NCBI GenBank assembly: GCA_964422715.1
Contig: CAYRCM010000003.1
Location: forward strand, 15,377 to 79,376
Direction of reading: 5' to 3'
Origin: an uncultured Myxococcales bacterium
GTDB lineage: Bacteria > Myxococcota_A > UBA9042 > PWKZ01 > CAYRCM01
Length of the DNA stretch: 64,000 bases
The translations under genes and the position numbers were made by a program. This document shows positions 24,827 through 44,400 of the stretch, one piece after another. The notes under the pieces are model-generated. The model did no database searches. It was given only the letters and a program-made list of their open reading frames with translations, and was not told the origin of the DNA. The first letter of the stretch is position 1. The number at the start of each line of letters is the position of its first letter.

Positions 24827-26806
24827 ATGACCACGCGCCTCGGCCCATACACCCTCATCGAGCGCCTCGCCACCGGCGGTATGGCCGAGATCTTTCGCGC
24901 CAACCGAGAGGGCGAGGCCGGCTTCCAGAAGCCCTGCGTCGTCAAGCGCATCCTGCCGCACTTCGCCCAGGATCCGCAGTTCATCCACATGTTTCTCGAC
25001 GAGGCCCGGCTGGCGGCCCAACTCAACCACCCCAATATCGTTCAGATTTTCGAACTTGGCGGACACGACGGCACCTATTTCGTGGCCATGGAGTACGTCC
25101 AGGGCTGGCCGCTGTCGCGGGCTCTCAAAGTGCTCGCCGACAACGACCTCCGGATGCCCTTGCCCATCGGGGCCTGGATCGTCGCCAAGATGTGCGCCGG
25201 CCTCGAATACGCCCACGGCCTGCGCGACGCCAGCGGCGAGCCGCTCGGCCTCGTCCACCGCGACATCAGCCCCGACAACGTGCTCGTCACGGGGGCCGGC
25301 GAGGTCAAGATCATCGACTTCGGCATCGCCAAGGCCCGCGGCCGCGAGACCAAGACGGTCGCCGGCACCGTCAAAGGCAAGTTTCGCTACATGTCGCCCG
25401 AGCAGGTCACCGGGCGCCCCGTCGACCGGCGCTCCGACCTGTTTTCGCTCGGCATCGTGCTCTACGAGGTCACCACGCTCGGCCGGCCGTTCCTCGGCGA
25501 CAGCGACGTCATGACGGCCACGGCCATCGTGCGCGATGACCCCACCGTCCCGAGCGTCTACCTCGAAGGCTACCCGGTCAAACTCGAACGCATCATCCTC
25601 TCGGCGCTTTCCAAAGACCTCGATGCGCGCTATCAGAGCGCCGCCCTCATGCAGACCGACCTCGAAGACTACCTGCGTTCGACGGGTTCCTATCCGACCG
25701 AACGCGAAGTCGGCGAGTACATGGCGCGGCTCATGTCGGGCGAAGCACCCGACCTCGCCTACTTGCGGGCGGTGCCCCTGGGCCTCGAACACCCCGCTCC
25801 GGCCCCGGCAGCACCGGCCGCGGCCGTTGTCGAGACCGCTACGCGGCCGCAGGCCCGTGCCGCACAGGCCGTTGTGCCGCCGCCGGCCGCCGCCGCGCCC
25901 GCCAACGCGGGGTCCGCCGACGTCGCGCCAAGTCCTCGGGCGGCACAACGCGGGACGCGCAAAGTCCTGTTTGCCGCCCTCGCCCTCGTGCTCGCGGGAG
26001 CGGTGGCGTTCGGGCTCTACATGCTCCTGCGCCCCGACGCTCCCTCGACGGGTACCGCCGTGCTGCCGGCGCTGTCCCTGTCGTCCGACGCCGGCTCGTC
26101 GGCCGCCGATCCGTCGCGCTCCCTGCCGCGGCCCGACGCCGTTGGCACGCGCCAAACCCCGCCGCCAGCCGACGCCGCCGCGCCCTCCGCGGCGCCTGGC
26201 GAAGTCCGTCCGGCATCGCCGGTGCCGCCTCAGCCGGCATCCGATGCGGTCGGGGCTTCCGGCCAGCCGTCCCCGTTTCTCCGTCTGCGCTGGGGCCGCG
26301 ACGCCACGGGCGCCGCGCCGACGCCAGCCGATGCGGGCGCTGCGGCCGTGGCCCCGTCACCCGACGCGACGGCTCCCGCTCCGCCTCCAGCCCAGGCCTG
26401 GCTCGTGATCCCTCAACTGCGCCCAGCCACGACGGTTTCGCTCGACGGTCAGCCCCAGGGTGCGCCGCCGTTGCGCCTCAAGGTGGCCCCGGGGCCTCAC
26501 GACGTCGCTTTTGCGCAGGGTGGCAGGACGGTCGTCGAGCATGTCGAGGTCGCCGCCGGCAGCGAGGCCACGGTCACCCCGCATTTCCCGGCGGCCGCCA
26601 CCGACAACATCGGCTACCTCGTCGTGGCCGCCCCACGGTCGTTGCCCCTCACCATCTCGTCGGTCCGCCGACCGCGGGTCAATCATCCGCTGCCCCTCAA
26701 ACCCGGGGTCTACAGCATCCGCTACCTCAGTCCATCAACCAAGCGTTGGAATAGCCTGACCGCCAAGGTCCGCTCAGGGCGTACGACCACGGTGCGAGCG
26801 TTCTGA
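24827..26806 (+). CDS. Hanks-type Ser/Thr protein kinase with Ala/Pro-rich linker and C-terminal beta-rich domain
   Basis: GxGxxG-like loop (LATGGMAEIF), VVK, catalytic HRDISPDNVL, DFG and SPE motifs. Roughly 300 aa of low-complexity and C-terminal region. Confidence 0.9.
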   Translation: MTTRLGPYTLIERLATGGMAEIFRANREGEAGFQKPCVVKRILPHFAQDPQFIHMFLDEARLAAQLNHPNIVQIFELGGHDGTYFVAMEYVQGWPLSRALKVLADNDLRMPLPIGAWIVAKMCAGLEYAHGLRDASGEPLGLVHRDISPDNVLVTGAGEVKIIDFGIAKARGRETKTVAGTVKGKFRYMSPEQVTGRPVDRRSDLFSLGIVLYEVTTLGRPFLGDSDVMTATAIVRDDPTVPSVYLEGYPVKLERIILSALSKDLDARYQSAALMQTDLEDYLRSTGSYPTEREVGEYMARLMSGEAPDLAYLRAVPLGLEHPAPAPAAPAAAVVETATRPQARAAQAVVPPPAAAAPANAGSADVAPSPRAAQRGTRKVLFAALALVLAGAVAFGLYMLLRPDAPSTGTAVLPALSLSSDAGSSAADPSRSLPRPDAVGTRQTPPPADAAAPSAAPGEVRPASPVPPQPASDAVGASGQPSPFLRLRWGRDATGAAPTPADAGAAAVAPSPDATAPAPPPAQAWLVIPQLRPATTVSLDGQPQGAPPLRLKVAPGPHDVAFAQGGRTVVEHVEVAAGSEATVTPHFPAAATDNIGYLVVAAPRSLPLTISSVRRPRVNHPLPLKPGVYSIRYLSPSTKRWNSLTAKVRSGRTTTVRAF

Positions 26807-26910
26807 GCGGCGAGTCGCTGCCCGCCGAGGCCCCGGCCACGTCCGGCTGGCAGCCGGGGCCCGATTGTGCTAGAGCTCGGGCCACGTTCTTTCCGGGCGA
26901 GGAGGATGCC

Positions 26911-27375
26911 ATGCGACATCTAGCAACAGCAGCCCTCACACTCTGCTGCGTCTGGGCCGCCGCGGCGTGCGGCGACGACGGCGACGACCCCTCGCGGCAG
27001 GACGACCGTCGTTCCGCTGCGAAACCCATGGATATGGGCGGTATCGCCGACGACAAGGTCGACCCCGCAGCTGGTGACTCGACTGACTGGAAGAAATTCA
27101 GCCTCGTCACCGACGACACGGTCACGGTTACAGTGTACTTCGACAACCCGACGGTCGATGCCAAGGTCGCCCTGCGCGACGCCTTCGGCTCGGACCTCAA
27201 GAAGTGCGTCAAAGAAGCCGACAAGGATTGCGTGCTTACCATCGATCTCAAAGGGGGAACGTACTTCGTGGGGGTCGAAGCCGGCGAGCAGGCATCGGTC
27301 TACACTGTTTCGGTGGAATTGGGTAGCGGAAAGATTGCAGGTACGGGCGGTTACGACGACCCGCGGCCCGAGTAG
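26911..27375 (+). CDS. Small secreted lipoprotein (hypothetical)
   Basis: 154 aa. Signal peptide ending in a lipobox-like AAAC-G. Acidic mature protein. Sits immediately upstream of the CIS-like operon promoter. Confidence 0.55.
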   Translation: MRHLATAALTLCCVWAAAACGDDGDDPSRQDDRRSAAKPMDMGGIADDKVDPAAGDSTDWKKFSLVTDDTVTVTVYFDNPTVDAKVALRDAFGSDLKKCVKEADKDCVLTIDLKGGTYFVGVEAGEQASVYTVSVELGSGKIAGTGGYDDPRPE

Positions 27376-27602: not shown

Positions 27603-28190
27603 ATGAGCCAATTTGAGGTCATCCGCGACATCGGAAAGACCCTCGAAGACTTGCTCAAGGAAGCGTTCAAGAGCAAGGGTTTCACCACAGTCAACGTCAG
27701 CACCGACAAGCCCAAGAAAGACAATATCAAGAATCTTCCAACGGTTTCCTGCTACCTCTACCATGTCTCCTTCGCCCCGGGCTACAAGGAGCGCACGCAG
27801 GCGCTCGTCTCCACCCAGGACCGCGAGGGCAACATCGTCGAGTTCTACCAGGACGCCCCGGTCTACCTTTGGGCGCACTTCATCATCTCGGTCTGGGGCA
27901 ATTCCCCAGCCGAAGAAAACTTGCTTCTCGGGCTCGCCGTGAAGACCTTCCTCGAGAACCCCATTCTCACGGGGGAGGTGCTCCGCGGCGATTCCTTCTA
28001 CCCCGACGACATGCTCAACATCTACCCGAATCTACAGACAGATTTCAACGACGTCTTGACGTTCTGGAGAAGCCTCAACGAGGAACTGCGTCCGTCCATC
28101 TATTACTATGTCAAATTCCGGATCGAGTCCGACCGGAAGAGTACCGAGGTCAAGCGGGTTACTGGCAAGGATTTTGCTATCCGCCGATGA
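27603..28190 (+). CDS. DUF4255-like (Pvc16/Afp16 N-terminal-like) tail cap/terminator protein candidate
   Basis: 195-aa first gene of the operon, directly preceding a sheath gene, as in many eCIS loci. The assignment rests on context and size; the family membership was not verified. Confidence 0.45.
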   Translation: MSQFEVIRDIGKTLEDLLKEAFKSKGFTTVNVSTDKPKKDNIKNLPTVSCYLYHVSFAPGYKERTQALVSTQDREGNIVEFYQDAPVYLWAHFIISVWGNSPAEENLLLGLAVKTFLENPILTGEVLRGDSFYPDDMLNIYPNLQTDFNDVLTFWRSLNEELRPSIYYYVKFRIESDRKSTEVKRVTGKDFAIRR

Positions 28191-28301: not shown

Positions 28302-29450
28302 ATGGCAACGTCGTATCTCTCCCCGGGTGTGTATGTCGAAGAAGTCGACCGTGGCACGAAGCCGCTCGAAATGGTTGGCACGAGTACCGTCGGTTTCATC
28401 GGCGAATCGAACATCGGTCCCGTCAACCAGCCCATCTTCTGCACCAACTGGAGTCAGTACACCAAGCACTTTGGCGATTTCCAGAACAGCGAGTTTCTGG
28501 CTCACGCGGTGTATGGCTTCTTCAACAACGGCGGCGGCCGCTGCTTCGTTCTGAACGTCGGCCTGCCCGAAGAAGGCAAGGCGGGCAAAGCGGGTCTCTA
28601 CATCGGCACCGACAATGGCCCCGGCACCCGCACGGGTCTCAAGGCCTTCGAAGACTGCGACGAAATCAACATCGTCGTGGCCCCTGGCCAGACCGAGCCG
28701 GCCATCGTCGACGCGGTGCTCTCCCACTGCGAGAACATGCGCTATCGCTTCGCCATCCTCGACTCCCCCGAACTCATCGAAAAGGGTGGCGTCGACAAAC
28801 TGCCGAAGCCGCGCGACTCCAAGTACGGCGCCTACTACTTCCCCTGGGTCGAGGTCTACGACCCGATCAAGGGCAACATCTACCAACCGCCCTCTGGCTT
28901 CATGGCGGGCATCTACGCCCGCACCGACGGCGAGCGCGGTGTCCACAAGGCGCCGGCCAACGAGATCGTGCGCGGGGCGTTGGGTCTCAAGTACCAGATC
29001 ACGAAGGGCGAGCAGGACATCCTCAACCCGAAGGGCATCAACTGCATTCGCGAGTTCCCGAACCGCGGCATTCGGGTTTGGGGCGCCCGTACCATCTCCA
29101 GTGACCCGTCGTGGCGCTATATCAACGTTCGTCGTCTCTTCAACATGGTCGAGCAGAGCATCGAAATCGGCACCCAGTGGGTCGTCTTCGAGCCCAACGA
29201 CCATCGGCTGTGGAAGCGCGTCACGCGTGACCTCACCGCCTTCCTGATGCGGCTGTGGCGGCAGGGTGCGCTCTTCGGCAAGACTCCCGAAGAGGCCTTC
29301 TACGTGAAGTGCGACGAAGAAACCAATCCGCCGGAAGTCATCGACGCTGGCCAGATGATCGTCGAGATCGGCATGTGCCCGGTGAAGCCGGCAGAGTTCG
29401 TCATTTTCCGCATCGGCCAAATGCCGGCCGGCGGTGACGTTTCCGAGTAG
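28302..29450 (+). CDS. Contractile tail sheath protein, paralog 1
   Basis: 382 aa with N-terminal MATSYLSPGVYVEEVD and the conserved C-terminal sheath motifs (…GAYYFPWV…, …GINCIREFPNRGIRVWGARTIS…, …WRYINVRRL…). Strong AGGAGG Shine-Dalgarno sequence. Confidence 0.9.
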   Translation: MATSYLSPGVYVEEVDRGTKPLEMVGTSTVGFIGESNIGPVNQPIFCTNWSQYTKHFGDFQNSEFLAHAVYGFFNNGGGRCFVLNVGLPEEGKAGKAGLYIGTDNGPGTRTGLKAFEDCDEINIVVAPGQTEPAIVDAVLSHCENMRYRFAILDSPELIEKGGVDKLPKPRDSKYGAYYFPWVEVYDPIKGNIYQPPSGFMAGIYARTDGERGVHKAPANEIVRGALGLKYQITKGEQDILNPKGINCIREFPNRGIRVWGARTISSDPSWRYINVRRLFNMVEQSIEIGTQWVVFEPNDHRLWKRVTRDLTAFLMRLWRQGALFGKTPEEAFYVKCDEETNPPEVIDAGQMIVEIGMCPVKPAEFVIFRIGQMPAGGDVSE

Positions 29451-29527: not shown

Positions 29528-29959
29528 ATGCCAAACCGTAGAAAGCACGATCACATTGGGCAGTTCAACTTCAAGGTCGAGATCGAGGGCGTGACCCAGG
29601 GCGCGTTCCGGAACGTCGAAGGCCTCGACAGCGAGACCGAGATCGTTGAATACCAGGACGGCGACGACATCATCCTGCGCAAGCGTCCCGGCCGTACCAA
29701 GTATTCGAACGTCGTTCTGAAGCGCGGCTACATCAACACCGACGAACTGTGGCAGTGGCGCAAGAAGGTCATCGAGGGCAAGGTGGAGCGCAAGAGCGGG
29801 TCCATCATCCTCTGCGCCGACGACGGCGGCGAAATCATGCGCTACAACTTCTTCGAAGGCTGGCCCTCGAAGTGGAAGGGCTTCACCCTCGACGGGAAGG
29901 GCGCCGACGTCAACGTCGAAGAGATCGAACTCGCGGTCGAGAAGATCGAGCGCGGCTAG
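29528..29959 (+). CDS. Tail tube protein (T4 gp19 / Hcp-like), paralog 1
   Basis: 143 aa. N-terminal …GQFNFKVEIEGVTQGAFRNVEGL… is typical of the tube family. Follows the sheath gene. Confidence 0.85.
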   Translation: MPNRRKHDHIGQFNFKVEIEGVTQGAFRNVEGLDSETEIVEYQDGDDIILRKRPGRTKYSNVVLKRGYINTDELWQWRKKVIEGKVERKSGSIILCADDGGEIMRYNFFEGWPSKWKGFTLDGKGADVNVEEIELAVEKIERG

Positions 29960-29997: not shown

Positions 29998-30044
29998 GAC
30001 CCACTCCGCCGGTCTAGCGGCGGGGTGGGTCGTTTTGCGTTTTG
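29998..30044 (+). terminator. Intrinsic-terminator-like hairpin with U-tract (possible attenuator) between tube 1 and the chaperone gene
   Basis: GACCCACUCCGCC-(8-nt loop)-GGCGGGGUGGGUC forms a 13-bp stem with one G·U pair, followed by GUUUUGCGUUUUG. Confidence 0.45.
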
Positions 30045-30063: not shown

Positions 30064-30435
30064 ATGGCTTTCAAGACCGAGTTTGAATTCACACTTCCGA
30101 AGGGTTACGTCGACAAGGACGGCAACCTGCATCGCAAGGGCGTGATGCGGCTGGCCACGGCCAAGGACGAAATTCTCCCCCTCCAGGACTACCGCGTCCA
30201 GGCCAATCGCGCGTATCTCGTCATCATTTTGCTTTCGCGCGTCATTACGAAACTCGGCGATCTGAGCTCCGTCAACCCCTCCGTCATCGAGGAGCTGTTC
30301 TCCGCCGACCTGGCCTACCTCCAGGACTTCTACCGCCGAATCAACGAGGAAGGCACGTCGAAGATCAAGGTGAGTTGTCCGGCGTGCAGCCACAAGTTCG
30401 AGGTCGATCTCGGAGCTGACCTGGGGGAATCATAA
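30064..30435 (+). CDS. Small tail-assembly-chaperone-like protein (P2 gpE / lambda gpG analog) with C-terminal CxxC
   Basis: 123-aa ORF between the tube and the next structural genes. Ends …SCPACSHKFEVDLGADLGES. The downstream ORF overlaps in the -1 frame. Confidence 0.5.
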   Translation: MAFKTEFEFTLPKGYVDKDGNLHRKGVMRLATAKDEILPLQDYRVQANRAYLVIILLSRVITKLGDLSSVNPSVIEELFSADLAYLQDFYRRINEEGTSKIKVSCPACSHKFEVDLGADLGES

Positions 30436-30593
30436 GCTACCCCCTGGACCGCTTGTACCAGGAGGTAGCCTACATCGCCTATCATTTCCATTGGTCGCCC
30501 GACGACGTCTTGGAGATGGAACACAAGGAGCGCCAGGTCTGGGTGCGCGAGATCTCCGAGATCAACAAGGAAATCAACCGTTCCCGCAGATGA
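30420..30593 (+). CDS. Putative -1 frameshift extension (E'/GT-like) of the upstream chaperone ORF; no independent start or RBS
   Basis: The frame opens at 30420, 16 nt before the upstream stop, across a CTGGGGGAA run. It encodes …YPLDRLYQEVAYIAYHFHWSPDDVLEMEHKERQVWVREISEINKEINRSRR. It has no ATG or GTG with an RBS; only a weak TTG at 30453. Confidence 0.35.
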   Translation, partial: PGGIISYPLDRLYQEVAYIAYHFHWSPDDVLEMEHKERQVWVREISEINKEINRSRR

Positions 30594-30606: not shown

Positions 30607-32370
30607 ATGGTGACCTACCGGCCTCCTGGCGTCTATCCGGAGCGTGCCGAGCGGCGATATGCCCCACTCACCCTCGCGAAGAGCGGGGTCGTGGGGTTCG
30701 TTGGCATCACCGAGAAGGGGCCAACCGACGTCCCGGTCCACGTGACGAGCCTCCGAAGGTTCCACGAAGTCTTCGGCCACCTCCAGCACCTCGACACCTA
30801 TCTCGAAGAGGCGCTAAAGGGGTTCTTCGACAATGGGGGGCGTGAATGCTACGTGCTCCGCGTGGCCCACCGGGCCAGCCGCGGCACGGGTGGGGCCGCC
30901 CGGGCCGAGGCGACGCTCGTCGATGGACTCGGGCGCAGCACGCTTCTCGCGCAGGCCCGCGACGAGGGCACGTGGGGCAACGAGATCGCGGTTTCCGTGC
31001 GCCGACCGCCGCCGCGGGTGCGGAGTCTGCTCACGATCGACCTCAAGCCCGGCGACTTGTTGGCCACCATCAAGTCGACCCACGGTTTCGAGCGAGGTAC
31101 CGTCGTCCGGATTACCGACGGCGAGGGCGAGGTCTACCGCGTCGTGCGTTCGCTCGACGGCAAGACCCTGCAATGGTTCGACGACCAGCCGCTCGATCGG
31201 GGGTTCAAGTCCGCTGCCCCCACCTACCTCGAGCCCGTCGAATTCGAACTGTCGGCCGAGACCTTGCGCGCGCGCGAAACCTACCGCAACCTCTCCATTG
31301 CCCCCAACAGCCGGAACTACGTGGCGCGCGTGGTCAACGGCGCCTCCGACCTCATTCGGGTCTCCGACCTCGATTCGAACTCCCCGCTGGCCGAGCGCCT
31401 GCCGGTCGTGGTCGACGACGTGCGGCTCGCCGGAGGCACCGACGGCATTTTCTCGCTAACACCCGACGATCTCATCGGCATGAACCTCGGACCCGGGGAG
31501 CGGTACGGTTTGGCCGCCTACGAGGCCGTCGAAGAGGTCGATCTGCTGTCCATTCCCGACCTCGTGTGGCTGTTTCGCGACGAACGGTGCCAGGCGTTTC
31601 GCACGCTCAAGGACGTCGAGGTGGTCCAGCAGTCCATGATCTCGCAATGTGAAATGCTGAAGGACCGCTTCGCGTTGCTCGACGCCCCCGACCCCGACGA
31701 CCACATCCTGGCCCAGCAGTGGCGCCTGATGTTCGACACCGCGTATGCGGCGCTCTACTTTCCCTGGCTCGTGGTCGATGCCGGCGGAGAAAAACGCTCC
31801 ATCCCTCCGAGTGGACACCTCGCCGGAATCTTTGCAAGATCCGACGCCGACCATGGCGTTCACCGTGCCCCAGCGAACGAACCGATTCACGGAATCACAG
31901 ATCTGGAACTGGTCTTGCAAGACGAAGACATCGCGACGCTGAACGAGAGGGGCATCAATTGTATGAAGTACTTTCCAGCGCGGGGCATACGGATTTGGGG
32001 GGCGCGCACGGTCTCCTCGGATTCGTCCCAGCGCTTCCTCAACGTTCGGCGCGTCATGAACACCATCATCCGTACGATGAACACGGGGCTGCAATGGGTG
32101 GTGTTCGAGCCGAACAACCCGCGTCTCTGGAAGATCGTGGACCGCGATGTGACCTATTTCCTTATGACTCTCTGGGAGAAGGGCTGGTTCAAAGGCGAGG
32201 TCCCGGAGGAAGCGTTCTACGTCAAGTGCGACGAGGAAACCAACCCGCCCGAGGTCAGAGATGCCGGGCAGGTGGTCGTCGAAGTCGGCGTCGCCCCTGT
32301 ACGCCCCGCGGAATACATTGTGTTCCGCATTGCGCAGACCGTTGGGGGTGGACGAGAGACGGGCGAATAG
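30607..32370 (+). CDS. Contractile tail sheath protein, paralog 2 (with ~200-aa inserted domain)
   Basis: 587 aa. N-terminal MVTYRPPGVYPER and C-terminal sheath motifs (…AALYFPWLVV…, …GINCMKYFPARGIRIWGARTVSS…). The C-terminal ~120 aa are nearly collinear with sheath 1. Confidence 0.9.
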   Translation: MVTYRPPGVYPERAERRYAPLTLAKSGVVGFVGITEKGPTDVPVHVTSLRRFHEVFGHLQHLDTYLEEALKGFFDNGGRECYVLRVAHRASRGTGGAARAEATLVDGLGRSTLLAQARDEGTWGNEIAVSVRRPPPRVRSLLTIDLKPGDLLATIKSTHGFERGTVVRITDGEGEVYRVVRSLDGKTLQWFDDQPLDRGFKSAAPTYLEPVEFELSAETLRARETYRNLSIAPNSRNYVARVVNGASDLIRVSDLDSNSPLAERLPVVVDDVRLAGGTDGIFSLTPDDLIGMNLGPGERYGLAAYEAVEEVDLLSIPDLVWLFRDERCQAFRTLKDVEVVQQSMISQCEMLKDRFALLDAPDPDDHILAQQWRLMFDTAYAALYFPWLVVDAGGEKRSIPPSGHLAGIFARSDADHGVHRAPANEPIHGITDLELVLQDEDIATLNERGINCMKYFPARGIRIWGARTVSSDSSQRFLNVRRVMNTIIRTMNTGLQWVVFEPNNPRLWKIVDRDVTYFLMTLWEKGWFKGEVPEEAFYVKCDEETNPPEVRDAGQVVVEVGVAPVRPAEYIVFRIAQTVGGGRETGE

Positions 32371-32464: not shown

Positions 32465-32956
32465 ATGCCAGCTGGGGCCAGGAATCAGGACTACCAGGTC
32501 AAGTTCAACTTCAACGTCGAAGTCGACGGCATCACCGCCGGACGATTCGTTGAGGCAGGCCCTCTCAAATGGAGCACGGAAGCCGAATCCGTGCGTGAGG
32601 GTGGCAACAACGCGGGCAAGGTCAACTTGGTGGGCCCGGGTACCTTCGACAAACTGTCCCTCAAACGTGGGTACCTCATCGCAAATACAGAGTTCTTCCA
32701 GTGGATGAAGGACATCCATGACCCGGCCAAAGGCAAGGGCTCGGGGTTGCGGCACAACTTCGACCTCGTCGTCCTCGATGACTCCGGGGCCGAAGTGGGG
32801 CGCTACAGCTTCTTCAACGCCTTTGTGTCCAACTATTCGGTCGACGCCTTCAACGCCAAGACGGGCGAGATTGTCATCGAGTCCGTTGAGTTGACCTATG
32901 ACTACTTCACGGTGAAGGGCTCGGGCGGCAGCGGGTTCACTGGGTCCGAACTGTGA
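32465..32956 (+). CDS. Tail tube protein (gp19/Hcp-like), paralog 2
   Basis: 163 aa. …YQVKFNFNVEVDGITAGRFVEAGPL… parallels tube 1. AAGGAG Shine-Dalgarno sequence. Confidence 0.8.
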   Translation: MPAGARNQDYQVKFNFNVEVDGITAGRFVEAGPLKWSTEAESVREGGNNAGKVNLVGPGTFDKLSLKRGYLIANTEFFQWMKDIHDPAKGKGSGLRHNFDLVVLDDSGAEVGRYSFFNAFVSNYSVDAFNAKTGEIVIESVELTYDYFTVKGSGGSGFTGSEL

Positions 32957-33004: not shown

Positions 33005-36000
33005 ATGGACGAATCCAAAACGCTGGGCACCAAACGCGACGGCACGAGCCCGAGGCTCGTCGCCGACCTCGTGAACCGCTTCGGGAGCGAGCACGCCGAC
33101 GTAACCCCCGATGACTCCAAGGCCTTGGCGGGCATGGGGGAGTGGCTGGGCCACCTCCAGTCGCGGAGCGACCCGAGCCACGTGGTCCTGTCCGGCGGCT
33201 GGACCCCGGCGGGCGGGCGCGACGTTCAAGAGCGTATCGCCTCCCGCTACCGTCTGGCCGAGCGGCCGCCGATTGCGACGGGGATTGCCGCGTTTCTTGG
33301 TGGGCTGCGCTGGACTTCTGCGCCCGAGCAGCGGTTTTTCGAATGGGGGGGCTTCGACGATTTCGAGTCCCTGATGCTCGAACCCGAACTGCCCGAGGGG
33401 GCCGACGAACTTGGAGACACATCGCCCCGACCCGCAGCGCGCGCAGGGGGATTGCGTGCGGGGCGGAAGGGCCGCGGACAGGCGAGCGTCCAGTCTCGCT
33501 CCGCGAAGGCGGGTGAGGTTGCCCGGTTGTCAGTGGCCACGCCGCCGCCCGGCGCTCCAATGGCCGCCGGCAACCTTCTCAGCGGCGAGTCGCTCGCCCC
33601 GCCGGAACCGCTGCGCGCGGTTTCTGCGGGCGCAGCACCGGTCGTCCTCGACGGCGTCCCGCTCAGCCCGCGCACACTGCCTGCCTTGACGGCAGCGCTT
33701 GCGCGGGTTTCCGAGGTCTTCCAAGGGCCGGCTGCCGCGACCGCGCGGCGTTTCAGCCCGGCTGCCTTTTCGGCGGCGCTCAAGGTCGTGTCGTTGACCT
33801 CGGCTGATGCGCCGAGCCAAAGGCGCCATGGTGCGCCGCCGCAGGCGACAACCGACCCGCGCAGCCAAGCCGCGGCGCAGGGCGTCTCACCGCGCGCGGT
33901 CGGCTTCCACCGCGGGATGGAACTGGGGACTGTAGTCCCCGGATCGGGCACGGGTGACCCCACTCCGGGGACCCCAGAAACCCGAATTTCTGCCAGGGCC
34001 CAGAAACGACGGGTACCCGCGACGTCCGCCGCCGACCCGACGATGCGACTCGGCCGGTACGGCTTCGCGCGCGACTTCAGTCTGACGCCGGCCGAAACCT
34101 TCTCGTCCTCCGTCATTCTGCGCGCCTTGGACGAGGCGCCCGACGCCGGACCTGACGCGTTTTCGCCGGGAGCAGGGTACGTCCAGCCGGCGGCTCCGGC
34201 CGCGCAGTCAACGGCGCTTGTTGGCGACAACGACATTGTCTACGTGTCTCTCGAAGACCTGGATCCGGCCGTACTTGGCGGCGGCGGCGAGGCCGAGGCC
34301 AGTTTGCGTGTGCCGACGGGCCTGCGTACGTTTGCCCGACTGCCCGCCACGGTGCGCGAGCGGCTCAGCAGCCATGCCTTGACTGTGACCGAGGCCGTTC
34401 GTCTCCAGCAGGCCCTGGCCCGCTCCGCGTCCTCGCCGGCCGGTCGACCGCTGCGGTCCCCGCACGCGCCGAGCGCCGCCGCGCAGGCGGCCGTCGTGCC
34501 AGCCGCCGCGGTGCGCGACCGGGTCGATGTGCAGACTCCGCCGTCTCTGCCGGCGGCGCTCCGCAACGCTGTGGCCGCGCGCACGCTGCCCGCGGAGGCG
34601 CGGTTTGGCTCGAGCGAGGTCGAGCCCGCGCAGCCGCGCCCCATTGGGCAGCCGGCTGTGCTCGGGCGTCCCGAACTGCTCGCCAGCCAGGTTCGCGCTC
34701 TTCGGGCTGCACTGCAGCCGAGGACGCTGCGGGCGCCGTTGGTTGGGCGTGACGCGCCGTCGGCGACGCCGGGCACCCGACCGGGAGCCAGGACGCGCGC
34801 AGCGAGCATCGAGTCGTGGATCCACGGGCTGGCCGCGATCCCGGGCGTGGAATCCGGCGCGTCCCCCACGGTGGGTCTTGGCGGTTCCCTGACGTCCGCC
34901 GCCAACGAGGCGGCGGGGCCGCGCCAGGTGCGGGCCGCGACCGAGGACGTTGGCCAGGGTCGCGTCGTCCCTGCCGGCATTCTCGATGGGGAATCCTTCA
35001 GCTGGTCCGGGTTCGACTTTCTTGCCCCGCAGGCCGAGGAAGCGGTCGTGCGCGACGAACAGCGTGTCGTTGCGGCCGCCCTTGCGGCAGCAGCGGGCGC
35101 GTCGCCGACTGGGGCGCAGCGTGCGGCCCAGCGCAGTACGTCGAAGCAGCCCCGACGGGCTCGGACCACTCGGGTGGCAGCCGCCCTTGAGCCCACGGCT
35201 TCTCTGGTCGGCGGCGTCGCTCCGGCCCTGCCCCCGACCGTCTCCGAGGCGCTGGCGGGGCTGACGGGCACCCGGCCCACCATCGCGGCGGGCGTTCGCC
35301 TGCGGGCCGACGTCGAAGAGGTAGGACGCGGCATCCGCCGCGCGGCCCCGGCCCGTGCGCAGGCCCCGGTCCCCGGCACCGCCGACGTTGCTCCGGCCAC
35401 GGCGACCGGTCGTCCGACCGAGGCCGCGTCCTCCGCGTTGACCGCGGAGACGCCGGAACTTGCGGCCTATTCCTACCTGCCGCGACTCGTGGCGCACCTT
35501 GGCGTCCGTCAGGCCGCAGCCGTGCTGCCGGCCCTGCGTACCGCGGAGGCGCGTCGCACCCTCACCGCCCGGACACCCGAACAGATCTCACGTCTCGTCG
35601 GTCCCGAACGGACCTACGCGGAGGGCTGGCTCTCCTCTGCCGTCGAATTGACGCGCGAGTGGCTTCGCCCCGTCGGGCCGGAGGGCCCCGCGGCGCTTCC
35701 AGAAGACGCCCGCGGGGTCGAGTCGGCCGCCGCATCGACGCGGCAGCGCGGGTCGGCCACGGCGGTGGGTGCAAGCGTGGCCGCCGATGCCCGCCCCCGG
35801 CGAGCTTCGGCCGAAGTCAGCGCGCCGGCGTTTGGGTTGCATCCCGGCTCCACGGGGGAGCCCGTGGGGCATGAGCGAACCGGTGGCGCAGTGGCGAGTG
35901 AGCGCGGGCGCTACTGGGGCGGCTTCGCGCCGTTGCGCAGTCGGGGCGCCAGTGGGGTGGCCGACGTCCTTCGTCAGGAGGCCCTCGCGATGGCCCTTGC

Positions 36001-37879
36001 GAGCCGTCACGCTGCCACTTCGGGCGACACCCCCTCGGCATCGAGCCCTTGGGACCGTGCCTGGGCAGGCGATCTGCTGACACTCGTCGAGCTCGAAGAG
36101 GCTCTTCGGACAGGCCCACCCGCTGGACAGGCCGAGGTCGGCGGTGATCCTGCCGCCGAAACGCGAATCGGCCGCGCCGGCGCCCGGGCCGGGGTCGAAC
36201 CGCGGAGGACGGTAGATGTGCCGGTCGACCGAGCAACAGCGGCCGGCGCCCCAAGTGGCCGCGCCGCGTTGGGCGCGGTCGAACTCGGCCGGGCCCTGAC
36301 GGCAGCGCGCCAGGTCCAGGAGCGGATGGGGGCGCCGACCCCTGTGGTGCAGCGCGTCGCTGCGGGGCTGCTGGGCCGTGAGACGGTCGGGCTTCGCCTC
36401 TCGACAGCGGTCGACGGGAGACTGACCGAGACCGAACCGGCCAACGACGTCGTGGCTCGGGCCGAGTCTGCGGCGAGGCCGCTCGGCGGGCCCGCATTCA
36501 CCGGTTTGGCGGATCGGCTCGAACGCTTGTGGGGGGGCGCTGCAGAGTCCCGCACCTCCCTCACGGGCCTTCCCGATGGCACGACCGAAGCATTCTGGGC
36601 CGAGGACGGCGCCCTCGTGCTGCCCGAACCCTCCGAGGCCGAAGCGTCGTCTCCGGCCGGTGGCGAGACGGGCGGCCTCCCGACGGCCCTCGCGACTCGG
36701 GCGGCAGCGCGGCGTGGTGCGCGCCCGGGGCGTCTCAGCGTTTCTCGGGGCGGCGCCGCCGACCAGCCGCTCACGGCTATCGAACGCGTCGCCGCGCGGC
36801 GTCTGGCGGCAGCCGCCAGCGGTGCTTTGCGGCGTCAGCCGCAGGCGGGCGGGCCGGCGGAACCCGGGCGATCGACAACCGCGTACCCGACCCTCATGGC
36901 CGTTCTCGCCGATCGGCCCGACGTTGCCGCCCGGGTTCTGCGTGCGGTTGGCGGCCAGGCCGATACGGCCGCGCAACTGCTGCGGCTCGAACCTGCAAGG
37001 CTGCCTCGGGCCGTTCGCGATGCGCTCACCCAGGCCGGCATCGACTGGGCCGCGCCTGCGCCCGCCGGAGGTGGCGCGGTGGCTGCCGAAGCCACCCGGC
37101 GTGCCAGCGCGGCGGTTCTCGACATCGAAACCATGATCGCGCTCGCCCTTGCCGACACAACGGGCGGGGTGGGCGACCCGATCAAGAGTGGCTTGGCCGA
37201 ACGGGCCCTCGGCGAAATCCCTGCCGCTTGGGCCCACGCCAACGACGCCATGGTGCAGCGGTTGGTCGAGCGGCTCACGCGCAGTCGGGCCGTCCGGCCT
37301 CTGGACATTGGCTTCGCCGACATGGAGCCGGTCGCCGGCGACACCGCCGCCACCTCTACAGAAGTGCCTGAGGCAGGCGGTGGGGTCACGCTGGTGCAGC
37401 CGGGTGCGGCGCCGACCCCGTCCGAGAATGAGCCGGCGCGGCGCACGCGTCGTGACGTCGTGGCGCCTGAGGGTCCTGGGGCCCCGATGACGGCGGCCCT
37501 CGACGCTGTCGACATGTCGCCGGTCACGTGGGACCTGATTCAGACCCGGCTCAGCAGCGCGCCCGTGTCGCACGCGCGTCCGGCCAACGTGTCTGGGGTG
37601 GCCCAGGCCATGTTGAGCAACCGCGTTCTGACCCGGTCTACACTGCCGCTCGTGGCTCCGGCCGTTGCCCAGGTCGCGGCGCAGGCGCAACTCAGCGCGT
37701 CCGGCGGTCCGACAGCCGACGCCCAGCCCACGCAGACGCAGGCCGCTGCTGGCGATGGCGCCGGTGCGGGCCTCGAAAAGCAACCCAAGCTCGATATGGA
37801 GCGTATCGCAAAGGAAATTGCGTCCAGGATTTCTCTGCGTGCGAGACGAGAGAATGATAGGAGAGGGACATGGCTCTGA
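33005..37879 (+). CDS. Giant (1624 aa) Ala/Pro/Arg-rich low-complexity protein in the tape-measure position (TMP candidate)
   Basis: 4.9-kb open frame, far beyond the random expectation of about 50 codons at 70 % GC. Codirectional with the operon, with an RBS before the ATG and a 10-nt overlap with the downstream gene. The antisense ORFs are Arg/Gly-rich artifacts. No recognisable catalytic motifs. Confidence 0.6.
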   Translation: MDESKTLGTKRDGTSPRLVADLVNRFGSEHADVTPDDSKALAGMGEWLGHLQSRSDPSHVVLSGGWTPAGGRDVQERIASRYRLAERPPIATGIAAFLGGLRWTSAPEQRFFEWGGFDDFESLMLEPELPEGADELGDTSPRPAARAGGLRAGRKGRGQASVQSRSAKAGEVARLSVATPPPGAPMAAGNLLSGESLAPPEPLRAVSAGAAPVVLDGVPLSPRTLPALTAALARVSEVFQGPAAATARRFSPAAFSAALKVVSLTSADAPSQRRHGAPPQATTDPRSQAAAQGVSPRAVGFHRGMELGTVVPGSGTGDPTPGTPETRISARAQKRRVPATSAADPTMRLGRYGFARDFSLTPAETFSSSVILRALDEAPDAGPDAFSPGAGYVQPAAPAAQSTALVGDNDIVYVSLEDLDPAVLGGGGEAEASLRVPTGLRTFARLPATVRERLSSHALTVTEAVRLQQALARSASSPAGRPLRSPHAPSAAAQAAVVPAAAVRDRVDVQTPPSLPAALRNAVAARTLPAEARFGSSEVEPAQPRPIGQPAVLGRPELLASQVRALRAALQPRTLRAPLVGRDAPSATPGTRPGARTRAASIESWIHGLAAIPGVESGASPTVGLGGSLTSAANEAAGPRQVRAATEDVGQGRVVPAGILDGESFSWSGFDFLAPQAEEAVVRDEQRVVAAALAAAAGASPTGAQRAAQRSTSKQPRRARTTRVAAALEPTASLVGGVAPALPPTVSEALAGLTGTRPTIAAGVRLRADVEEVGRGIRRAAPARAQAPVPGTADVAPATATGRPTEAASSALTAETPELAAYSYLPRLVAHLGVRQAAAVLPALRTAEARRTLTARTPEQISRLVGPERTYAEGWLSSAVELTREWLRPVGPEGPAALPEDARGVESAAASTRQRGSATAVGASVAADARPRRASAEVSAPAFGLHPGSTGEPVGHERTGGAVASERGRYWGGFAPLRSRGASGVADVLRQEALAMALASRHAATSGDTPSASSPWDRAWAGDLLTLVELEEALRTGPPAGQAEVGGDPAAETRIGRAGARAGVEPRRTVDVPVDRATAAGAPSGRAALGAVELGRALTAARQVQERMGAPTPVVQRVAAGLLGRETVGLRLSTAVDGRLTETEPANDVVARAESAARPLGGPAFTGLADRLERLWGGAAESRTSLTGLPDGTTEAFWAEDGALVLPEPSEAEASSPAGGETGGLPTALATRAAARRGARPGRLSVSRGGAADQPLTAIERVAARRLAAAASGALRRQPQAGGPAEPGRSTTAYPTLMAVLADRPDVAARVLRAVGGQADTAAQLLRLEPARLPRAVRDALTQAGIDWAAPAPAGGGAVAAEATRRASAAVLDIETMIALALADTTGGVGDPIKSGLAERALGEIPAAWAHANDAMVQRLVERLTRSRAVRPLDIGFADMEPVAGDTAATSTEVPEAGGGVTLVQPGAAPTPSENEPARRTRRDVVAPEGPGAPMTAALDAVDMSPVTWDLIQTRLSSAPVSHARPANVSGVAQAMLSNRVLTRSTLPLVAPAVAQVAAQAQLSASGGPTADAQPTQTQAAAGDGAGAGLEKQPKLDMERIAKEIASRISLRARRENDRRGTWL

Positions 37880-38580
37880 AAAACGACATCATGGGCCAGG
37901 CGTACGGCGGAGAACTGGCCCGGGCCAAGCTCAAGGTCATCGCCGAGCATGCGGGGTCGATTTCGGGTCCGACGGAACTGGAGTTGCCGATCAACCCGAA
38001 CAAGGTGACCGTCTCGAAGGAGGTCAACCGGGGTTCCGACTCTCCGGCCGTGGGCTCCGACACGAGGCAGCGCCAGGAAACGGGCAGCGAACCTCGCACG
38101 GTGACTCTCCATGACGTGATCTTCGATACGTACGAGGAGCGCGACGACGTCCGCACCAAGTACATCGACACGTTGGAGAAGTTTGCGAGCGTCGACAAGA
38201 ACCTGCACCAGCGACCGACCCTGATGCTCGACTGGGGTGCGTTCAAGACGACGTATGAAAGTGGGGGCAAGCTGCTCGTCGAAATCTCCAAGTTCGACGT
38301 GACCTACACGATGTTCCTGCGCGACGCCACCCCGGTGCGGTGCCGCACGACCATCGTGCTCAAAGAGGTCACCGACCCGAAGGAGAAGGCGTCCGAGATG
38401 CAGTCGCCCGACCACGCGAAGCTGCACACCGTCATTCGCGGCGACACGCTCCAGGCCCTGTCCTTCAAGGAGTACGACGATCCCCGGGAATGGCGCCGCA
38501 TTGCGGATGCCAACAACCTGGACGATCCGATGCAGCTCGAGCCCGGGACGAAACTGTTGATCCCGCCCATCCTCAAGTGA
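37870..38580 (+). CDS. LysM-domain tail-tube-initiator/baseplate protein (Afp7 / Mu gp43-like)
   Basis: 236 aa with a C-terminal LysM (…HTVIRGDTLQALSFKEYDDPREWRRIADANNLDDPMQLEPGTKLLIPP). In this position, before a GpD hub gene, it matches CIS and Mu-like tail loci. Confidence 0.7.
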   Translation: MALKNDIMGQAYGGELARAKLKVIAEHAGSISGPTELELPINPNKVTVSKEVNRGSDSPAVGSDTRQRQETGSEPRTVTLHDVIFDTYEERDDVRTKYIDTLEKFASVDKNLHQRPTLMLDWGAFKTTYESGGKLLVEISKFDVTYTMFLRDATPVRCRTTIVLKEVTDPKEKASEMQSPDHAKLHTVIRGDTLQALSFKEYDDPREWRRIADANNLDDPMQLEPGTKLLIPPILK

Positions 38581-38615: not shown

Positions 38616-39809
38616 ATGGCAAGCGGACAGACCGGAAAAGAAGTCTCCATCTCCATCAAGATCGATGGCAAGGAAACGTTGACCGGCTCGGTTGGGGGGT
38701 CCGAACCCCTCATCGACGGTGGGCCGATCCCGTACCTGCGGGTGGAGAAGTACCTGAACGCACCGGACAGCTGTGTGGTGCAGTTCAGCCAAATCAAAGA
38801 GGGCAAGATCGACATTCTCGATCAGGACTTCGAGGGCAAGTCCATCGTCATCGAGGCGGGTATCGGCCGCGGCAGTCGCGGGCCCCTGTTCGTTGGCGAG
38901 ATCGCGTATGTCGAGCCCCACTTCACCACGGGGGAAGAGCCTCCGTATACCGAGATCGGGGCGTACGACCACTCGCACCGCCTCACCCGCGGCACGCGTT
39001 CCCGAACCTGGGGCGACGGGGTCCAGGCGAGTGAGAAGGTCAGCGACGTCGCCAGCAACGTCATCTCGTCCAGCATGAGCCAGAAGGGCGATGCGACCGA
39101 CCAACTCTCGATCGACAAGGTCGACGCGTCGACGCCTCAGCACGCCTACGTCGCCCAGGTCAACCAGAACGACTACCAGTTCATGCGGCGGCTGGGCTAC
39201 GCAATGGGACGCGTGACCGACTCGGACTCGACCGCCGACGACAAGAAAGTCCGATTCGCCAAGATCGACCCATCGGCGGGCGAGGTCGTGACGATTTGCC
39301 GCGAGGCAGCCGGACAGGATCAGTCGCAGGTCCTTGCGACGAACATGCGTCTCGGTCTCAGCGCCGTTCGGCAGGTCGTCAAAGTCATCGTGCGCGGCTG
39401 GAACCAGAAAGAAAAGAAGAACATCGTCGGTATTGCTGAATCGAGCGACATCAGTTTCGACGGCACGCCGGGCTGGCAGCGTTCGGCGCAGGCGTTCTAC
39501 GGCAGCGCGAGCGCCGGGCGCGTCTACGAAGTGGTCAACCAGCCCGTCGACAGCAAGGAAGAAGCCGATGCCGTGGCGCAGGCTATCTTCAACGGGCTGT
39601 CGCTCGACTTCGTTACCGGCGAGGCCACGTTCCCCGGGCGACCTGGCATCAATCCGGGCGACATGGCCAAGGTTGACGGCAAGTACGGCGGACGTTTCGG
39701 TGGCAAGAAATTCCTCATCACGGGGGTTATCCATACCATCGACCGCTCCAACGGGTTCCTGACAACCCTCCAACTCGCGCGCAACGCCATCGGCGATCCC
39801 ACCGCCTAG
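38616..39809 (+). CDS. Baseplate hub protein, phage late control GpD / gp27 / VgrG-N-like
   Basis: 397 aa. …QNDYQFMRRLGYAMG… matches the Phage_GPD core. Has no gp5-like beta-helix spike extension. Confidence 0.7.
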   Translation: MASGQTGKEVSISIKIDGKETLTGSVGGSEPLIDGGPIPYLRVEKYLNAPDSCVVQFSQIKEGKIDILDQDFEGKSIVIEAGIGRGSRGPLFVGEIAYVEPHFTTGEEPPYTEIGAYDHSHRLTRGTRSRTWGDGVQASEKVSDVASNVISSSMSQKGDATDQLSIDKVDASTPQHAYVAQVNQNDYQFMRRLGYAMGRVTDSDSTADDKKVRFAKIDPSAGEVVTICREAAGQDQSQVLATNMRLGLSAVRQVVKVIVRGWNQKEKKNIVGIAESSDISFDGTPGWQRSAQAFYGSASAGRVYEVVNQPVDSKEEADAVAQAIFNGLSLDFVTGEATFPGRPGINPGDMAKVDGKYGGRFGGKKFLITGVIHTIDRSNGFLTTLQLARNAIGDPTA

Positions 39810-41446: not shown

Positions 41447-44400
41447 ATGATCGGGGGCATGGTCCGACGGTTGACCTGGGCGGGACTCATCCTCGCCTGG
41501 GCAGCCACCTCGCCGGGCTGCAACAACAACGAACGCACGCTCCAGGCGAAGCGCATCGAGCGCGAAGACGAACTCATCGGAGGCCCGCTGGCCAAGGGCC
41601 AGATCGGCGACTTCCTGCTCGAAAACGACAAGGTCCGGGTCGTCATCACGGCCACGGGGCACTCGTGGGAAGTCGGCCTCTTCAGCGGCAGCCTCATCGA
41701 CGCCGACCTGCGCCGGCCCGAGCGGTCCTTTGTGGCGGCTGGCGGGCTCGACCAGTTTGCCGAGCTGTTTCCCACCGTGAATCTCGTCACGGCCAACCCC
41801 AATGCCCCCGTGCGCGACCTCGTCGCGGCCCCGGCCGGGGTCCCCATGTGGGCGCCCGACGGCTCGGGTCAGGTTACGAACGAGACACGGCAGCTGCGGG
41901 TTGTCGACGAGCACGTGAGCGGGGTCTGGATCGAGAGCGACGGCTCGGACGGCACCGAGGCCGCCGTGGTCGCCGAAGGGCGCGGCGCCTTCCTTTTCGA
42001 GGCGCTCGGCTTGCTCCAGAGCCCGGAACTCTCGGCGTTCGTGAAGAACCTGAAAGTTGGGTTCGACTTCCGGACGACGTATGCCGTCCGGCCGGGCGAG
42101 TCTTGGGTGCGCATGCGCACGACCATCCGCTACAGCCCGAGCGACGTGCCCGCCGGCTGTCCCGGTCTGCCGGGCGACGACTGCCCCCTCGCCTGTCCGG
42201 CGGGCTACGAAACCGAATCCGTACCGGGAACCGAGGACGCCGCAACCGGCGAATGGAGCGAACTCGACTGTCCGACGTGCCGCTGTACCGTCGCCGGGAG
42301 CCAGGACTGGCAGCGTGAAGCCTGCGCCAACGCGCCCGTTTTTCGCCCCGACCCGGCCGACCCCACGACCTGGCATCGCTTCTGCCACGTGCCGGGCCAA
42401 CCGACCGTTCCATGCACCGACTACGAGGACCCAGCGGCTTGCGAATGTGGCTGCCTCAAGAGCGATTTTGGCGTGCAGGGCGACTGCAGCGCCTCCGGCG
42501 GCTACCGCTTCGAGGAAATCGAGGTCCCGAAGGAAGGCGGCGAGCCGGGCGAAGTCCGCCGCGTGTTCTGTCCGGTCTGCGCGTGCGACGGCAGCGACGA
42601 CCTGCCGCTGTACACCGAGAGCACGAGCATCTTCAACGACATCATCGGCGACCTGCCGTTCATCAACCCACGTCGCTGGCAACCGGGGATGATCGCTGGC
42701 GATTTCCTCTTCTTCGGCAAAGAATGCAACGTGTTTGCACCGGGGCTCGGCTACGACGAAGACCGCCGCATCTTCGAAAACACCTGGGAAGGCATCGGCA
42801 CCATCTCCAACCCGCTCTGCACCGACTATGTGGCCGCCGTCGGCGACCGCGTGTCGTACGGCTACTTCGCCTACGATCCCACACTGAACGTCGACGAACC
42901 GATCGACTCGGCCCGCTGTCCGACGAAACGGCTGGCACTCGTCGGGCTCAACTACCGGCCGCAGCTCTGGGACGAGGGCTCGCAGACGTTCACGGACATC
43001 TTCGACCGGCACCAGCGTCGCCGGGCGCGCGCTGGCATCCGGCAGGCGCTCGTCGACGATTTCGGCGTGACCGACACGGGCGTGGCCAGGTCGTTGCTCA
43101 CGGCCTTGCGCGTCGAACGCACGCCGCTCGTGCTCCGCACGCTCGAAACCCACTGCTACAACGGCAAGGATGACGACGCCGACGGCGTTCGCGACTGCGA
43201 AGACACCGACTGCGCGGGCGCCACGTGCGACTTCCGCTACGAAGAGTGCGAGGGCAAAGACCCGTGTCCCGCAATCGAAGACCCCCCCGCCGATTGCGAT
43301 CGCACCGGCGACAGCCGTTGTGATGGCTCCGACCTGGCGATTCAAGCCGCCATCGACGCCTTCGACGCGGCGCTCGGCGTCGCCGTCGTGGCCGAATCCG
43401 TGTGCACCGACGGCCTCGACGACGACGGCGATGGGCTCACCGACTGCGACGACGGTGACTGCGGCAGCGGAGCGGGGGGCTGCGAAGTCGGAACTGCCGA
43501 CGATACCTGCAACGCCCGCGGCTGCCGGAGCGGGGAGGCCGACTGCCTTCGAACGGGCGACGACCCAGCGTGCTGCCTCAACGGGGCTGACGACGACGGT
43601 GACGGGGCGGTTGACTGCGACGACGACAACTGCGGCGTCGAGCCGGCCTGCCAGACTCCCGTGGCCTCGGCCGAAGACCTCCTCACGGTGGGCTTCATCC
43701 CGGCGCCGGAGTGTCAACAGCCGAAGCTGCTCATCCCCCTGTTCACGAACAGTGCCACGGCGGTCATCACGCACGGCAAGCGCTGTGCCACGAGCCCGCT
43801 CTACGGCGATACGTGTCAGGGGGAGCGCTCGCTGAGCTACGAGCGCTTCTTCCTGATCGGCGAAGGCGATGTCGCGTCCATCCTCGACAGCGTGTACACG
43901 CTGCGCGGACAGGCCACCGGCACGCTGCGCGGGGCCGTGCTCGAAGCCGGCACCATGCGTCCCGTGCCGCACGCCGACGTTTTCGTACTGCGACTTCCCG
44001 TGGCCGCTCCCGCGTCGGCCGCGGCCGAGGGCAAGGCGGTCGAACCGAGCGAAGACCAACAGAACGCCGACTTCCTGCGCTACGGCTTCGCCTGGCGCGA
44101 CCTCATGGACGTTCGCGATCCCTTCGACCGCAACAATCCGGTCACGTACGACATGCTCGTGCGCGCCAACGACATCGCGTTCGGCAACATGGGGTTCGTG
44201 ACCCAGATGCAGTGCGACCGGGGCAGCGACCCGCGGCTCGACGGCGACTTCCAGGGGCGCTTGCTGCCCGGCACCTACGCCGTGGTCGCGCGCGGGTCGG
44301 ACACGACGGTGTCGGCCCTCCAGATCGTCCAGGTGCGCTCAGGCCAAACGACCGACGTCTACCCGCTCGTGCCTCCGCCCGGCAAGGTCAACTACCGGGT

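Follow-up and report, generated by a model that had tools for sequence, protein, structure and literature searches.

A likely programmed −1 frameshift joining a tail assembly chaperone gene to a DUF6760 extension in a contractile injection system locus of a Myxococcales bacterium

The stretch of DNA analysed here (hereafter the window) comprises 64,000 nucleotides (nt) from an uncultured Myxococcales bacterium. On its forward strand, at 30064–30593, it carries a small open reading frame, which we call ORF1, whose 3′ end is overlapped by a second open frame lying at −1 relative to it, both within a locus for a contractile injection system. We consider it likely, from the comparison of related sequences, that the two frames are one recoded gene, in which a programmed −1 ribosomal frameshift at 30423–30429, stimulated by a downstream hairpin, would give products of 123 and 176 residues. 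The initial annotation, made from the letters of the window alone, had proposed a tail assembly chaperone frameshift of the E/E′ or G/GT type, and this proposal is now supported by homology, by the −1 overlap in 92 loci, by a consistently phased G_GGG_G and by a stem-loop. What we describe is very probably a programmed −1 frameshift of the kind known from E and E+E′ of phage P2, here in a contractile injection system locus; the mechanism itself is not new.

ORF1 runs on the plus strand from the ATG at 30064 to the TAA at 30433–30435 (123 residues), ends in …GADLGES* and has a CPxC element resembling a zinc ribbon in its C-terminal part; PHROG 508 and its relatives place it among the tail assembly chaperones of the P2 gpE/Mu gp41 class. 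The second frame is bounded on its 5′ side by the TGA at 30417–30419, begins at 30420 with CCT GGG GGA ATC ATA AGC TAC, and continues for 57 codons to the TGA at 30591–30593. The initial annotation had given the same end for ORF1, the same opening and the same length for the second frame, and had stated that the latter has no ATG or GTG, all of which our scan bears out. The sole canonical start in the −1 frame is a TTG at 30453 (codon 12), which we rejected as unusable: it lies within both the conserved domain and the loop of the hairpin described below, has no purine-rich stretch 5′ of it, and recurs in only 1 of the 80 related loci first examined.

The DNA of the window is 66% G+C and its list of open reading frames shows many that overlap, so that 57 open codons are by themselves a weak signal. 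The −1 frame (30420–30593, plus strand), however, matches the Pfam family DUF6760 (PF20546) with E 1.2e-15 and 57.7 bits (gathering cut-off 27 bits), covering profile positions 8–53 of 89, and the same family is matched by 27/27 of its relatives. Judged by this match and by its conservation in every related locus examined, the −1 frame is genuine coding sequence.

The comparative set was built from a genome scan that gave 80 related loci (Myxococcota, Planctomycetota, Bacillota, Chloroflexota, Acidobacteriota, and Methanoperedens), to which plasmid and chromid loci were added from Nostoc, Ralstonia, Streptomyces, Kitasatospora, Rhodococcus, Paenibacillus, Pseudanabaena, Burkholderia, Rhizobium, Treponema, and two haloarchaea. 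The loci examined thus span Myxococcota, Actinomycetota, Cyanobacteriota, Bacillota, Spirochaetota, Pseudomonadota, Planctomycetota, Chloroflexota, Acidobacteriota, and archaea of the genus Methanoperedens. Slip sites were counted over 92 distinct loci, start codons and distances over 84, and the hairpin over 82 distinct loci. The DUF6760 frame overlaps the 3′ end of ORF1 at −1 in the window and in 80/80 of the genome loci, and stands at −1 relative to ORF1 in all non-haloarchaeal loci; the comparison of orthologous loci suggested in the initial annotation therefore finds the overlapping frame conserved in 92 of them.

The candidate slippery heptamer, G_GGG_GAA at 30423–30429 on the plus strand, is placed so that its GGG is a codon of ORF1, and this phase is found in 92/92 loci. 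The codon before the GGG likewise ends in G in every one of the 92, and yet ten different amino acids are encoded there. The codon after it is GAA in 63 loci, GGG in 14, GGA in 7, GAG in 5, and a stop in 3, so that many relatives carry a formally canonical G_GGG_GGG or G_GGG_GGA; the length of the G-run ranges from 4 to 8. The initial annotation had called the heptamer of the window non-canonical and the mechanism, for that reason, uncertain. By the X_XXY_YYZ rule the first statement stands, while the uncertainty is reduced, since slipping of chaperone genes on GGGGGAA is known: under the name “fivetwo”, this motif is recorded for about 1000 annotated actinobacteriophage chaperone frameshifts, for which re-pairing of the A-site tRNA-Glu on GGA has been accounted for by a G:U pair (PMC10885494).

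Distances around the run are equally constrained in the −1 frame. From the G-run to a conserved tyrosine codon there are 15 nt in 75/84 loci, and the intervening −1-frame peptide GG(I/V)xxYP is conserved across loci. The tail of ORF1 after the G-run consists of only 0–2 residues, variable in both length and sequence, and its stop falls 0–5 nt past the run in every locus except Ralstonia L082, where the tail is longer. The conserved distances and the −1 peptide fit a reading in the −1 frame from the G-run onward, and do not fit initiation further downstream. As an observation on the stop codon itself, TAA ends ORF1 in 50/84 loci, though the genomes are mostly of about 65% G+C, where TAA is normally uncommon and where TGA would be equally tolerable for the −1 frame protein at this place. 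The excess may reflect selection on termination efficiency, or selection against creating a GTG start.

Downstream of the heptamer we find a spacer of 6 nt, TCATAA (30430–30435, plus strand), which contains the stop of ORF1 and whose length follows from the fixed 15 nt between G-run and tyrosine codon, and then a stem-loop at 30436–30469 (plus strand), the candidate stimulator, in which GCUACC-C-CCUGG pairs with CCAGG-A-GGUAGC around a loop of 10 nt. A search for RNA structure at this place had been suggested in the initial annotation, and a conserved element is indeed present. In isolation the stem-loop of the window folds with −18.7 kcal/mol (z −4.5 against shuffles), and RNAalifold recovers it from 25 diverse loci. 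Across the 82 distinct loci, pairing is retained in 92.7% of the cells of the stem, compared with 33–63% when the partner columns are slid, and two-sided, compensatory change is seen at 5 of the 11 stem pairs; none of 500 shuffles (0/500) matched the observed values. For the valine of the 3′ arm, 75/82 loci use GTA, a codon that makes up only about 7.5% of valine codons locally, and this retention gives independent support to the hairpin.

Individual substitutions follow the same pattern. At this position the Treponema stem reads GCCGCC/GGCGGC, in which two pairs are compensated and the encoded tyrosine is replaced by arginine and the valine by alanine; the stem of L064 is CCUACC/GGUAGG, CUCG/CGAG replaces CUGG/CCAG in L055-type loci, and L049 has a further compensatory variant. 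In Streptomyces and Kitasatospora the stem is of 8 base pairs, GUACGCGG/CCGCGUAC, in a shifted register. RNAalifold also pairs the G-run itself (30423–30427) with a CUUCC at about 30488–30492, some 60 nt downstream, and this second pairing is neither supported nor excluded by the alignment, both sides being invariant for coding reasons (the codons for HFHW).

Between the G-run and the conserved tyrosine, no ATG, GTG, or TTG is found in 61/84 loci. None of the 50 loci that stop ORF1 with TAA has such a start (0/50), and such starts as occur are all created incidentally by a TGA or TAG stop. The starts that NCBI assigns to DUF6760 genes are accordingly strange ones: ATA in Nostoc (L081:2507), ATT in Pseudanabaena, CTG in Kitasatospora, and an internal TTG in Rhodococcus. 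It appears that a family model here demands a gene where no start exists. Annotations of DUF6760 with odd starts or truncations were located at L081:2507, L095:707, L096:710, and L089:731, and in several other records no gene is annotated under the DUF6760 match, the PLSDB gene tables being nearly empty there.

The haloarchaea present the opposite arrangement. Haloferax and Halogeometricum have orthologues of ORF1 (hhalign E 7e-47) that are about 50 residues longer, and their DUF6760 is separately started, with its own ATG in an ATGA overlap and a length of 89 residues (L087:1453–2249 and L093:147–949). In these loci the G-run is absent, the valine codon is GTC, and the downstream region is no more stably folded than shuffles (z −0.5 and −0.1). 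Because the orthologues that bear an ATG are without both G-run and hairpin, the two signals go with the missing start codon, as recoding signals would. In the Haloferax relatives a DUF4255 protein and an AAA ATPase adjoin the locus.

The comparison shows the geometry of the two frames, their homologies, a slip site conserved in sequence and phase, and a hairpin with covariation; that ribosomes slip here, how often, and what the two proteins do we infer as follows. Most ribosomes would read ORF1 through to its TAA and release the chaperone of 123 residues. A fraction would slip back by one base on CUG GGG GAA (heptamer 30423–30429), the P-site tRNA-Gly re-pairing from GGG to GGG and the A-site tRNA-Glu from GAA to GGA through a central G:U pair, aided by the stem-loop of 11 base pairs that starts 6 nt downstream (30436–30469). 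The slipped ribosomes would then read the −1 frame from 30426 to 30590 and add 55 residues (GIISYPLDRLYQEVAYIAYHFHW…), which form the DUF6760 domain. The predicted fusion, …FEVDLGADLG-GIISYPLDRLYQEVAYIAYHFHW…, would be 176 residues long (121 + 55), one fewer than the approximately 177 of the initial annotation, and the tryptic peptide across its junction would be FEVDLGADLGGIISYPLDR. By analogy with G/GT of phage lambda and E/E+E′ of P2, the two forms would act together during assembly as chaperones of the tape-measure protein and bring in tube subunits, with the frameshift fixing the ratio of short to long.

The extension itself is related to one already known to be made by frameshifting. A profile of 27 DUF6760 sequences aligns with P2 E′ in hhalign at 93.3% probability (E 2.7e-7, 40 columns), and the two have in common the motif FHW…M…E…W; P2 E′, which is annotated as a −1 extension in the record of the phage, includes …TFPKNLSVDDLMADVAVIFHWPPSELYPMSLTELITW…. 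The Pfam family Phage_P2_GpE (PF06528) matches the −1 frame of the window below its cut-off (E 1.3e-3), and sub-threshold matches to it occur in 10/27 of the DUF6760 relatives. The sole phage stretch resembling DUF6760 is in Pseudomonas phage PG1, within the unannotated gap that separates the tape-measure gene from a tail assembly gene; it lies in the −1 frame, 3′ of a P2-like T_TTT_TTG. Because of the alignment to P2 E′ and the similarity in the PG1 gap, the second frame is, on sequence grounds, a homologue of a known frameshift extension.

For ORF1 the relationship to known chaperone families is, by the same kind of comparison, remote. It matches PHROG 508 (“tail assembly chaperone”) with E 6.8e-6, and the Pfam families Gp41_Mu and Phage_TAC_7 (E/41/14 chaperones) match 7/24 and 3/24 of its relatives, respectively, all below cut-off. 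Databases hold more than 8000 relatives, named “phage tail assembly protein” by NCBI. A tblastn search of 50,697 phage records with ORF1 gave no match, and comparison of ORF1, as of DUF6760 (single sequence and profile), with solved structures gave nothing meaningful, the matches being only designed coiled coils and Trm112 (E ≥ 0.05). A structure model of ORF1 built from database hits was too poor for a fold search (mean predicted local distance difference test score, pLDDT, 54.6; predicted template modelling score, pTM, 0.28), and an exact-sequence look-up of P0001 returned no record. Tandem ORF1 chaperone domains, each with its own CPxC, occur within single proteins (P0121 and P0125; L047:95–538). 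By gene order, we take sco4251 of S. coelicolor to be the likely Streptomyces counterpart of ORF1. The protein has been listed as one of unknown function in a particle preparation, with nothing further reported (PMC10020575).

The alternative that deserves most attention is that ORF1 and DUF6760 are two separate genes, the second started by itself or by termination and reinitiation at the stop of ORF1, with GGGGG acting in the manner of a Shine–Dalgarno sequence and with ATA at 30432 as the start in the window and GTG or ATG elsewhere. The frame relation alone does not discriminate here, since four-base overlaps of start and stop always give a −1 frame; GGGGG is able to pair with the anti-Shine–Dalgarno, NCBI annotates DUF6760 as a protein of its own, 23/84 loci have a GTG, ATG, or TTG near the ORF1 stop, and true ATGA overlaps exist in Burkholderia and Rhizobium as well as in the haloarchaea. 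In the other 61/84, however, the codon overlapping the stop is GTA, ATA, CTA, TTA, GCG, or similar, most of which cannot initiate, and neither the G-ending codon before the run nor the single phase of the run is needed by a ribosome-binding site. Upstream of every candidate start the GG(I/V)xx segment keeps a constant length, which the tail of ORF1 does not; the spacing from run to start (0–4 nt) is short for initiation; a stable hairpin directly downstream would impede it; and both G-run and hairpin are gone from the orthologues whose ATG is clean. An independent start in orthologues, which the initial annotation had named as a result that would refute a frameshift, is thus present in haloarchaea, Burkholderia, and Rhizobium (ATGA) and in about a quarter of the loci (GTG), and is absent from the window and from the 61. 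Separate or coupled initiation fits a minority of the loci and not the window, and we regard it as unlikely; because DUF6760 is separately started in the haloarchaea, it is kept alive for the lineages with GTGA or ATGA.

Two further explanations place the event elsewhere than on the ribosome. RNA polymerase might insert one G in the run of five, so that some transcripts would carry the whole protein in a single frame; the homopolymer is conserved, its length varies from 4 to 8 among loci, and one added base would yield the same fusion. Known bacterial slippage sites are long runs of A or T, of about nine or more, and five G (four in some loci) is a short run by comparison. Transcriptional slippage would require neither the fixed codon phase nor a conserved hairpin at 6 nt, and the motif matches a described ribosomal slip site (PMC10885494); we hold it to be very improbable. 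Least credible, and scarcely to be entertained, is that a one-base indel in the G-run, genuine or introduced in assembly, has split a continuous gene of 176 residues. G-runs are error-prone in sequencing and some database proteins are continuous fusions (P0271–P0274), but the gene is split in the same way, in the same phase and with the stop in the same place, in 92 independent loci, including some from complete genomes of cultured bacteria (Streptomyces, Nostoc, Rhodococcus, Paenibacillus, and Treponema), and the fusions are singletons among about 8000 homologues, one of which was examined and has shortened G-runs.

For the same reason we did not use the in-frame database fusions (P0156 and P0271–P0274) as evidence of frameshifting: they are rare singletons, and several others have garbled frames. 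L086, the one fusion with readable DNA, has shortened G-runs consistent with homopolymer error. A further candidate, P0118 (183 residues), owes its length only to an upstream mis-start.

Several observations weigh against a programmed frameshift as the explanation, or at least against its generality. At least some of the database fusions look like homopolymer or indel errors and so prove nothing. No Pfam family reaches its cut-off with ORF1, and a direct profile comparison of ORF1 with P2 gpE gave no signal. In about a quarter of the loci a GTG or ATG overlaps the ORF1 stop with GGGGG 4 nt upstream, which could serve as a ribosome-binding site, and initiation may be independent or coupled in some lineages; the haloarchaea demonstrate that DUF6760 can be a stand-alone protein. 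The stem varies little, so that the covariation rests on few events. Folding of the 52-nt context is only modestly below that of random windows from the same G+C-rich genomes (median z −1.3; z −0.6 for the window), and no convincing hairpin was found in L023, L024, or the Haliangium/Kofleriaceae-type loci L071, L074, and L080.

Among the known systems closest to the recoded gene proposed here is that of P2, which belongs with lambda G/GT and Mu gp41/42 to the chaperone genes recoded by a −1 slip. With gpE/gpE+E′ of the P2 FETUD tail operon the locus described here shares a small chaperone gene placed after the tube gene of a contractile tail, and an extension of about 55 residues in the −1 frame near the end of that gene, homologous to DUF6760. 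The P2 slip takes place on T_TTT_TTG, some 20 nt ahead of the stop codon of E, and a downstream structure has not been reported (PMC3091744); in the window the heptamer is G_GGG_GAA, lies 3 nt from the stop of ORF1 and is followed by the conserved hairpin. ORF1 also differs from gpE in its extra CPxC element and in showing no direct similarity to it, and the host element is a chromosomal injection system locus rather than a phage.

The GGGGGAA chaperones of actinobacteriophages (SEA-PHAGES, PRFect) have the same heptamer, the same −1 direction, the same class of gene, and the same proposed G:U re-pairing of tRNA-Glu. Those cases are mostly of the siphophage G/T type and curator-annotated, and ORF1 is without protein similarity in phage records; in the literature searched we found no link of the ORF1/DUF6760 family to the GGGGGAA motif. 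In lambda, G and GT are two products with a common N-terminus whose ratio is set by a −1 slip, from a gene lying between the tube and tape-measure genes. The functional model used here comes from lambda, with the tape measure bound by the short form and tube protein by the extension; the lambda tail is non-contractile and its site is G_GGA_AAG. A sequence relationship of lambda G/GT to ORF1 is not expected.

Small helical proteins encoded among tube genes are also known from injection systems, namely the essential spike plugs Cis6, Pvc6, Afp6, and Alg6 (PMC8894136, PMC12546770). Cis6, unlike DUF6760 in the window, is encoded by genes with starts of their own, for which an overlap with a chaperone gene has not been described. 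Cis6/Pvc6 plugs and DUF6760 were compared by sequence only, and no similarity was found; searches of the Protein Data Bank with a single DUF6760 sequence and with the profile, to E values of up to 10, returned no injection system plug chain. The searchable literature contained no mention of DUF6760, and no link of contractile injection systems with slippery sites or with a chaperone frameshift.

In databases the frameshift is unannotated, and the second half of the recoded gene appears as a gene of its own with unknown function. With somewhat less assurance than for the window itself, we think it rather probable that DUF6760 is, in most lineages and thus in thousands of loci, the frameshift extension of an injection system chaperone, made via an ancient site of the GGGGGAA type and a covarying hairpin; that it was missed by annotation and in the literature searched; and that it has since been converted to a separate gene in some lineages, such as the haloarchaea. 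If so, thousands of injection system loci carry a wrong gene model, and the phage tail chaperone frameshift extends to the phage-tail-derived machines of bacteria and archaea. Injection systems are under development as protein-delivery devices, and codon optimisation that removes the G-run, the rare GTA, or the hairpin could silently abolish the long form of the chaperone and block assembly. A very large family would thereby receive a corrected gene model, and the conserved hairpin and the practical consequences for expression add to the value of the finding. The members of the family, which range from frameshift through overlapping start to separate gene, also form a natural series in which the gain and loss of recoding sites can be studied.

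The genes around ORF1 and its −1 extension all lie on the plus strand between 27603 and 39809. A cap protein with a Pvc16 N-terminal domain (27603–28190; Pfam PF14065, E 1.4e-22) is followed by sheath protein 1 (28302–29450; Phage_sheath_1 and Phage_sheath_1C) and, directly 5′ of ORF1, by tube protein 1 (29528–29959; Phage_T4_gp19, E 4e-38; NCBIfam CIS5/CIS1-like below cut-off); ORF1 starts 105 nt past it. Downstream come sheath protein 2 (30607–32370; Pfam) and tube protein 2 (32465–32956; Pfam/NCBIfam), then an open reading frame of 1624 residues in the tape-measure position (33005–37879), a tube initiator with CIS_tube and LysM domains (37870–38580; Pfam), and a VgrG-related spike or hub (38616–39809; Phage_GPD below cut-off; NCBIfam VgrG_rel, E 7e-30, below cut-off). 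The second sheath and tube pair between chaperone and tape-measure candidate, which the initial annotation had thought unusual, is normal for such loci: it is seen also in L086 and in the contig of P0272, and in Nostoc (L081) a second tube gene follows the chaperone pair.

The 1624-residue frame is assigned by position only. It matched no family in Pfam or NCBIfam and is long for the tape measure of such an injection system; in the Streptomyces relatives, a large hypothetical protein stands directly after the chaperone pair. Among the larger open reading frames of the 64-kb window that were scanned, non-exhaustively, there was neither an AAA+ ATPase (Cis15) nor a baseplate wedge protein (gp25-like or baseplate-J-like). 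The flanks (1–27000 and 39800–64000) have a housekeeping character (Lon, ClpX, Nuo subunits, a UvrA-like protein, and an M3 peptidase). With cap, sheath, tube, LysM tube initiator, and VgrG-like spike encoded together, the locus agrees with extracellular or cytoplasmic contractile injection systems of the Afp/PVC type; it represents their trunk and spike and is not a prophage. The missing genes may lie elsewhere in the genome, and the locus may be split.

Three minor features of the neighborhood complete the description. In the gap between tube 1 and ORF1, a strong terminator-like element (29998–30044, plus strand) consists of a stem of 14 base pairs, 11 of them G–C, followed by GTTTTGCGTTTT; it might cause the chaperone and the genes after it to be expressed at a lower level than sheath and tube. 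Just past the spike region, an open reading frame of 1976 residues (41447–47377, plus strand) has a metallohydrolase domain of the CehA/McbA type and acidic double-disulfide repeats, and a role as cargo or effector is possible. Directly 5′ of the cap gene, at 24827–27375 on the plus strand, are a Ser/Thr protein kinase (659 residues) and a small PPC-domain protein.

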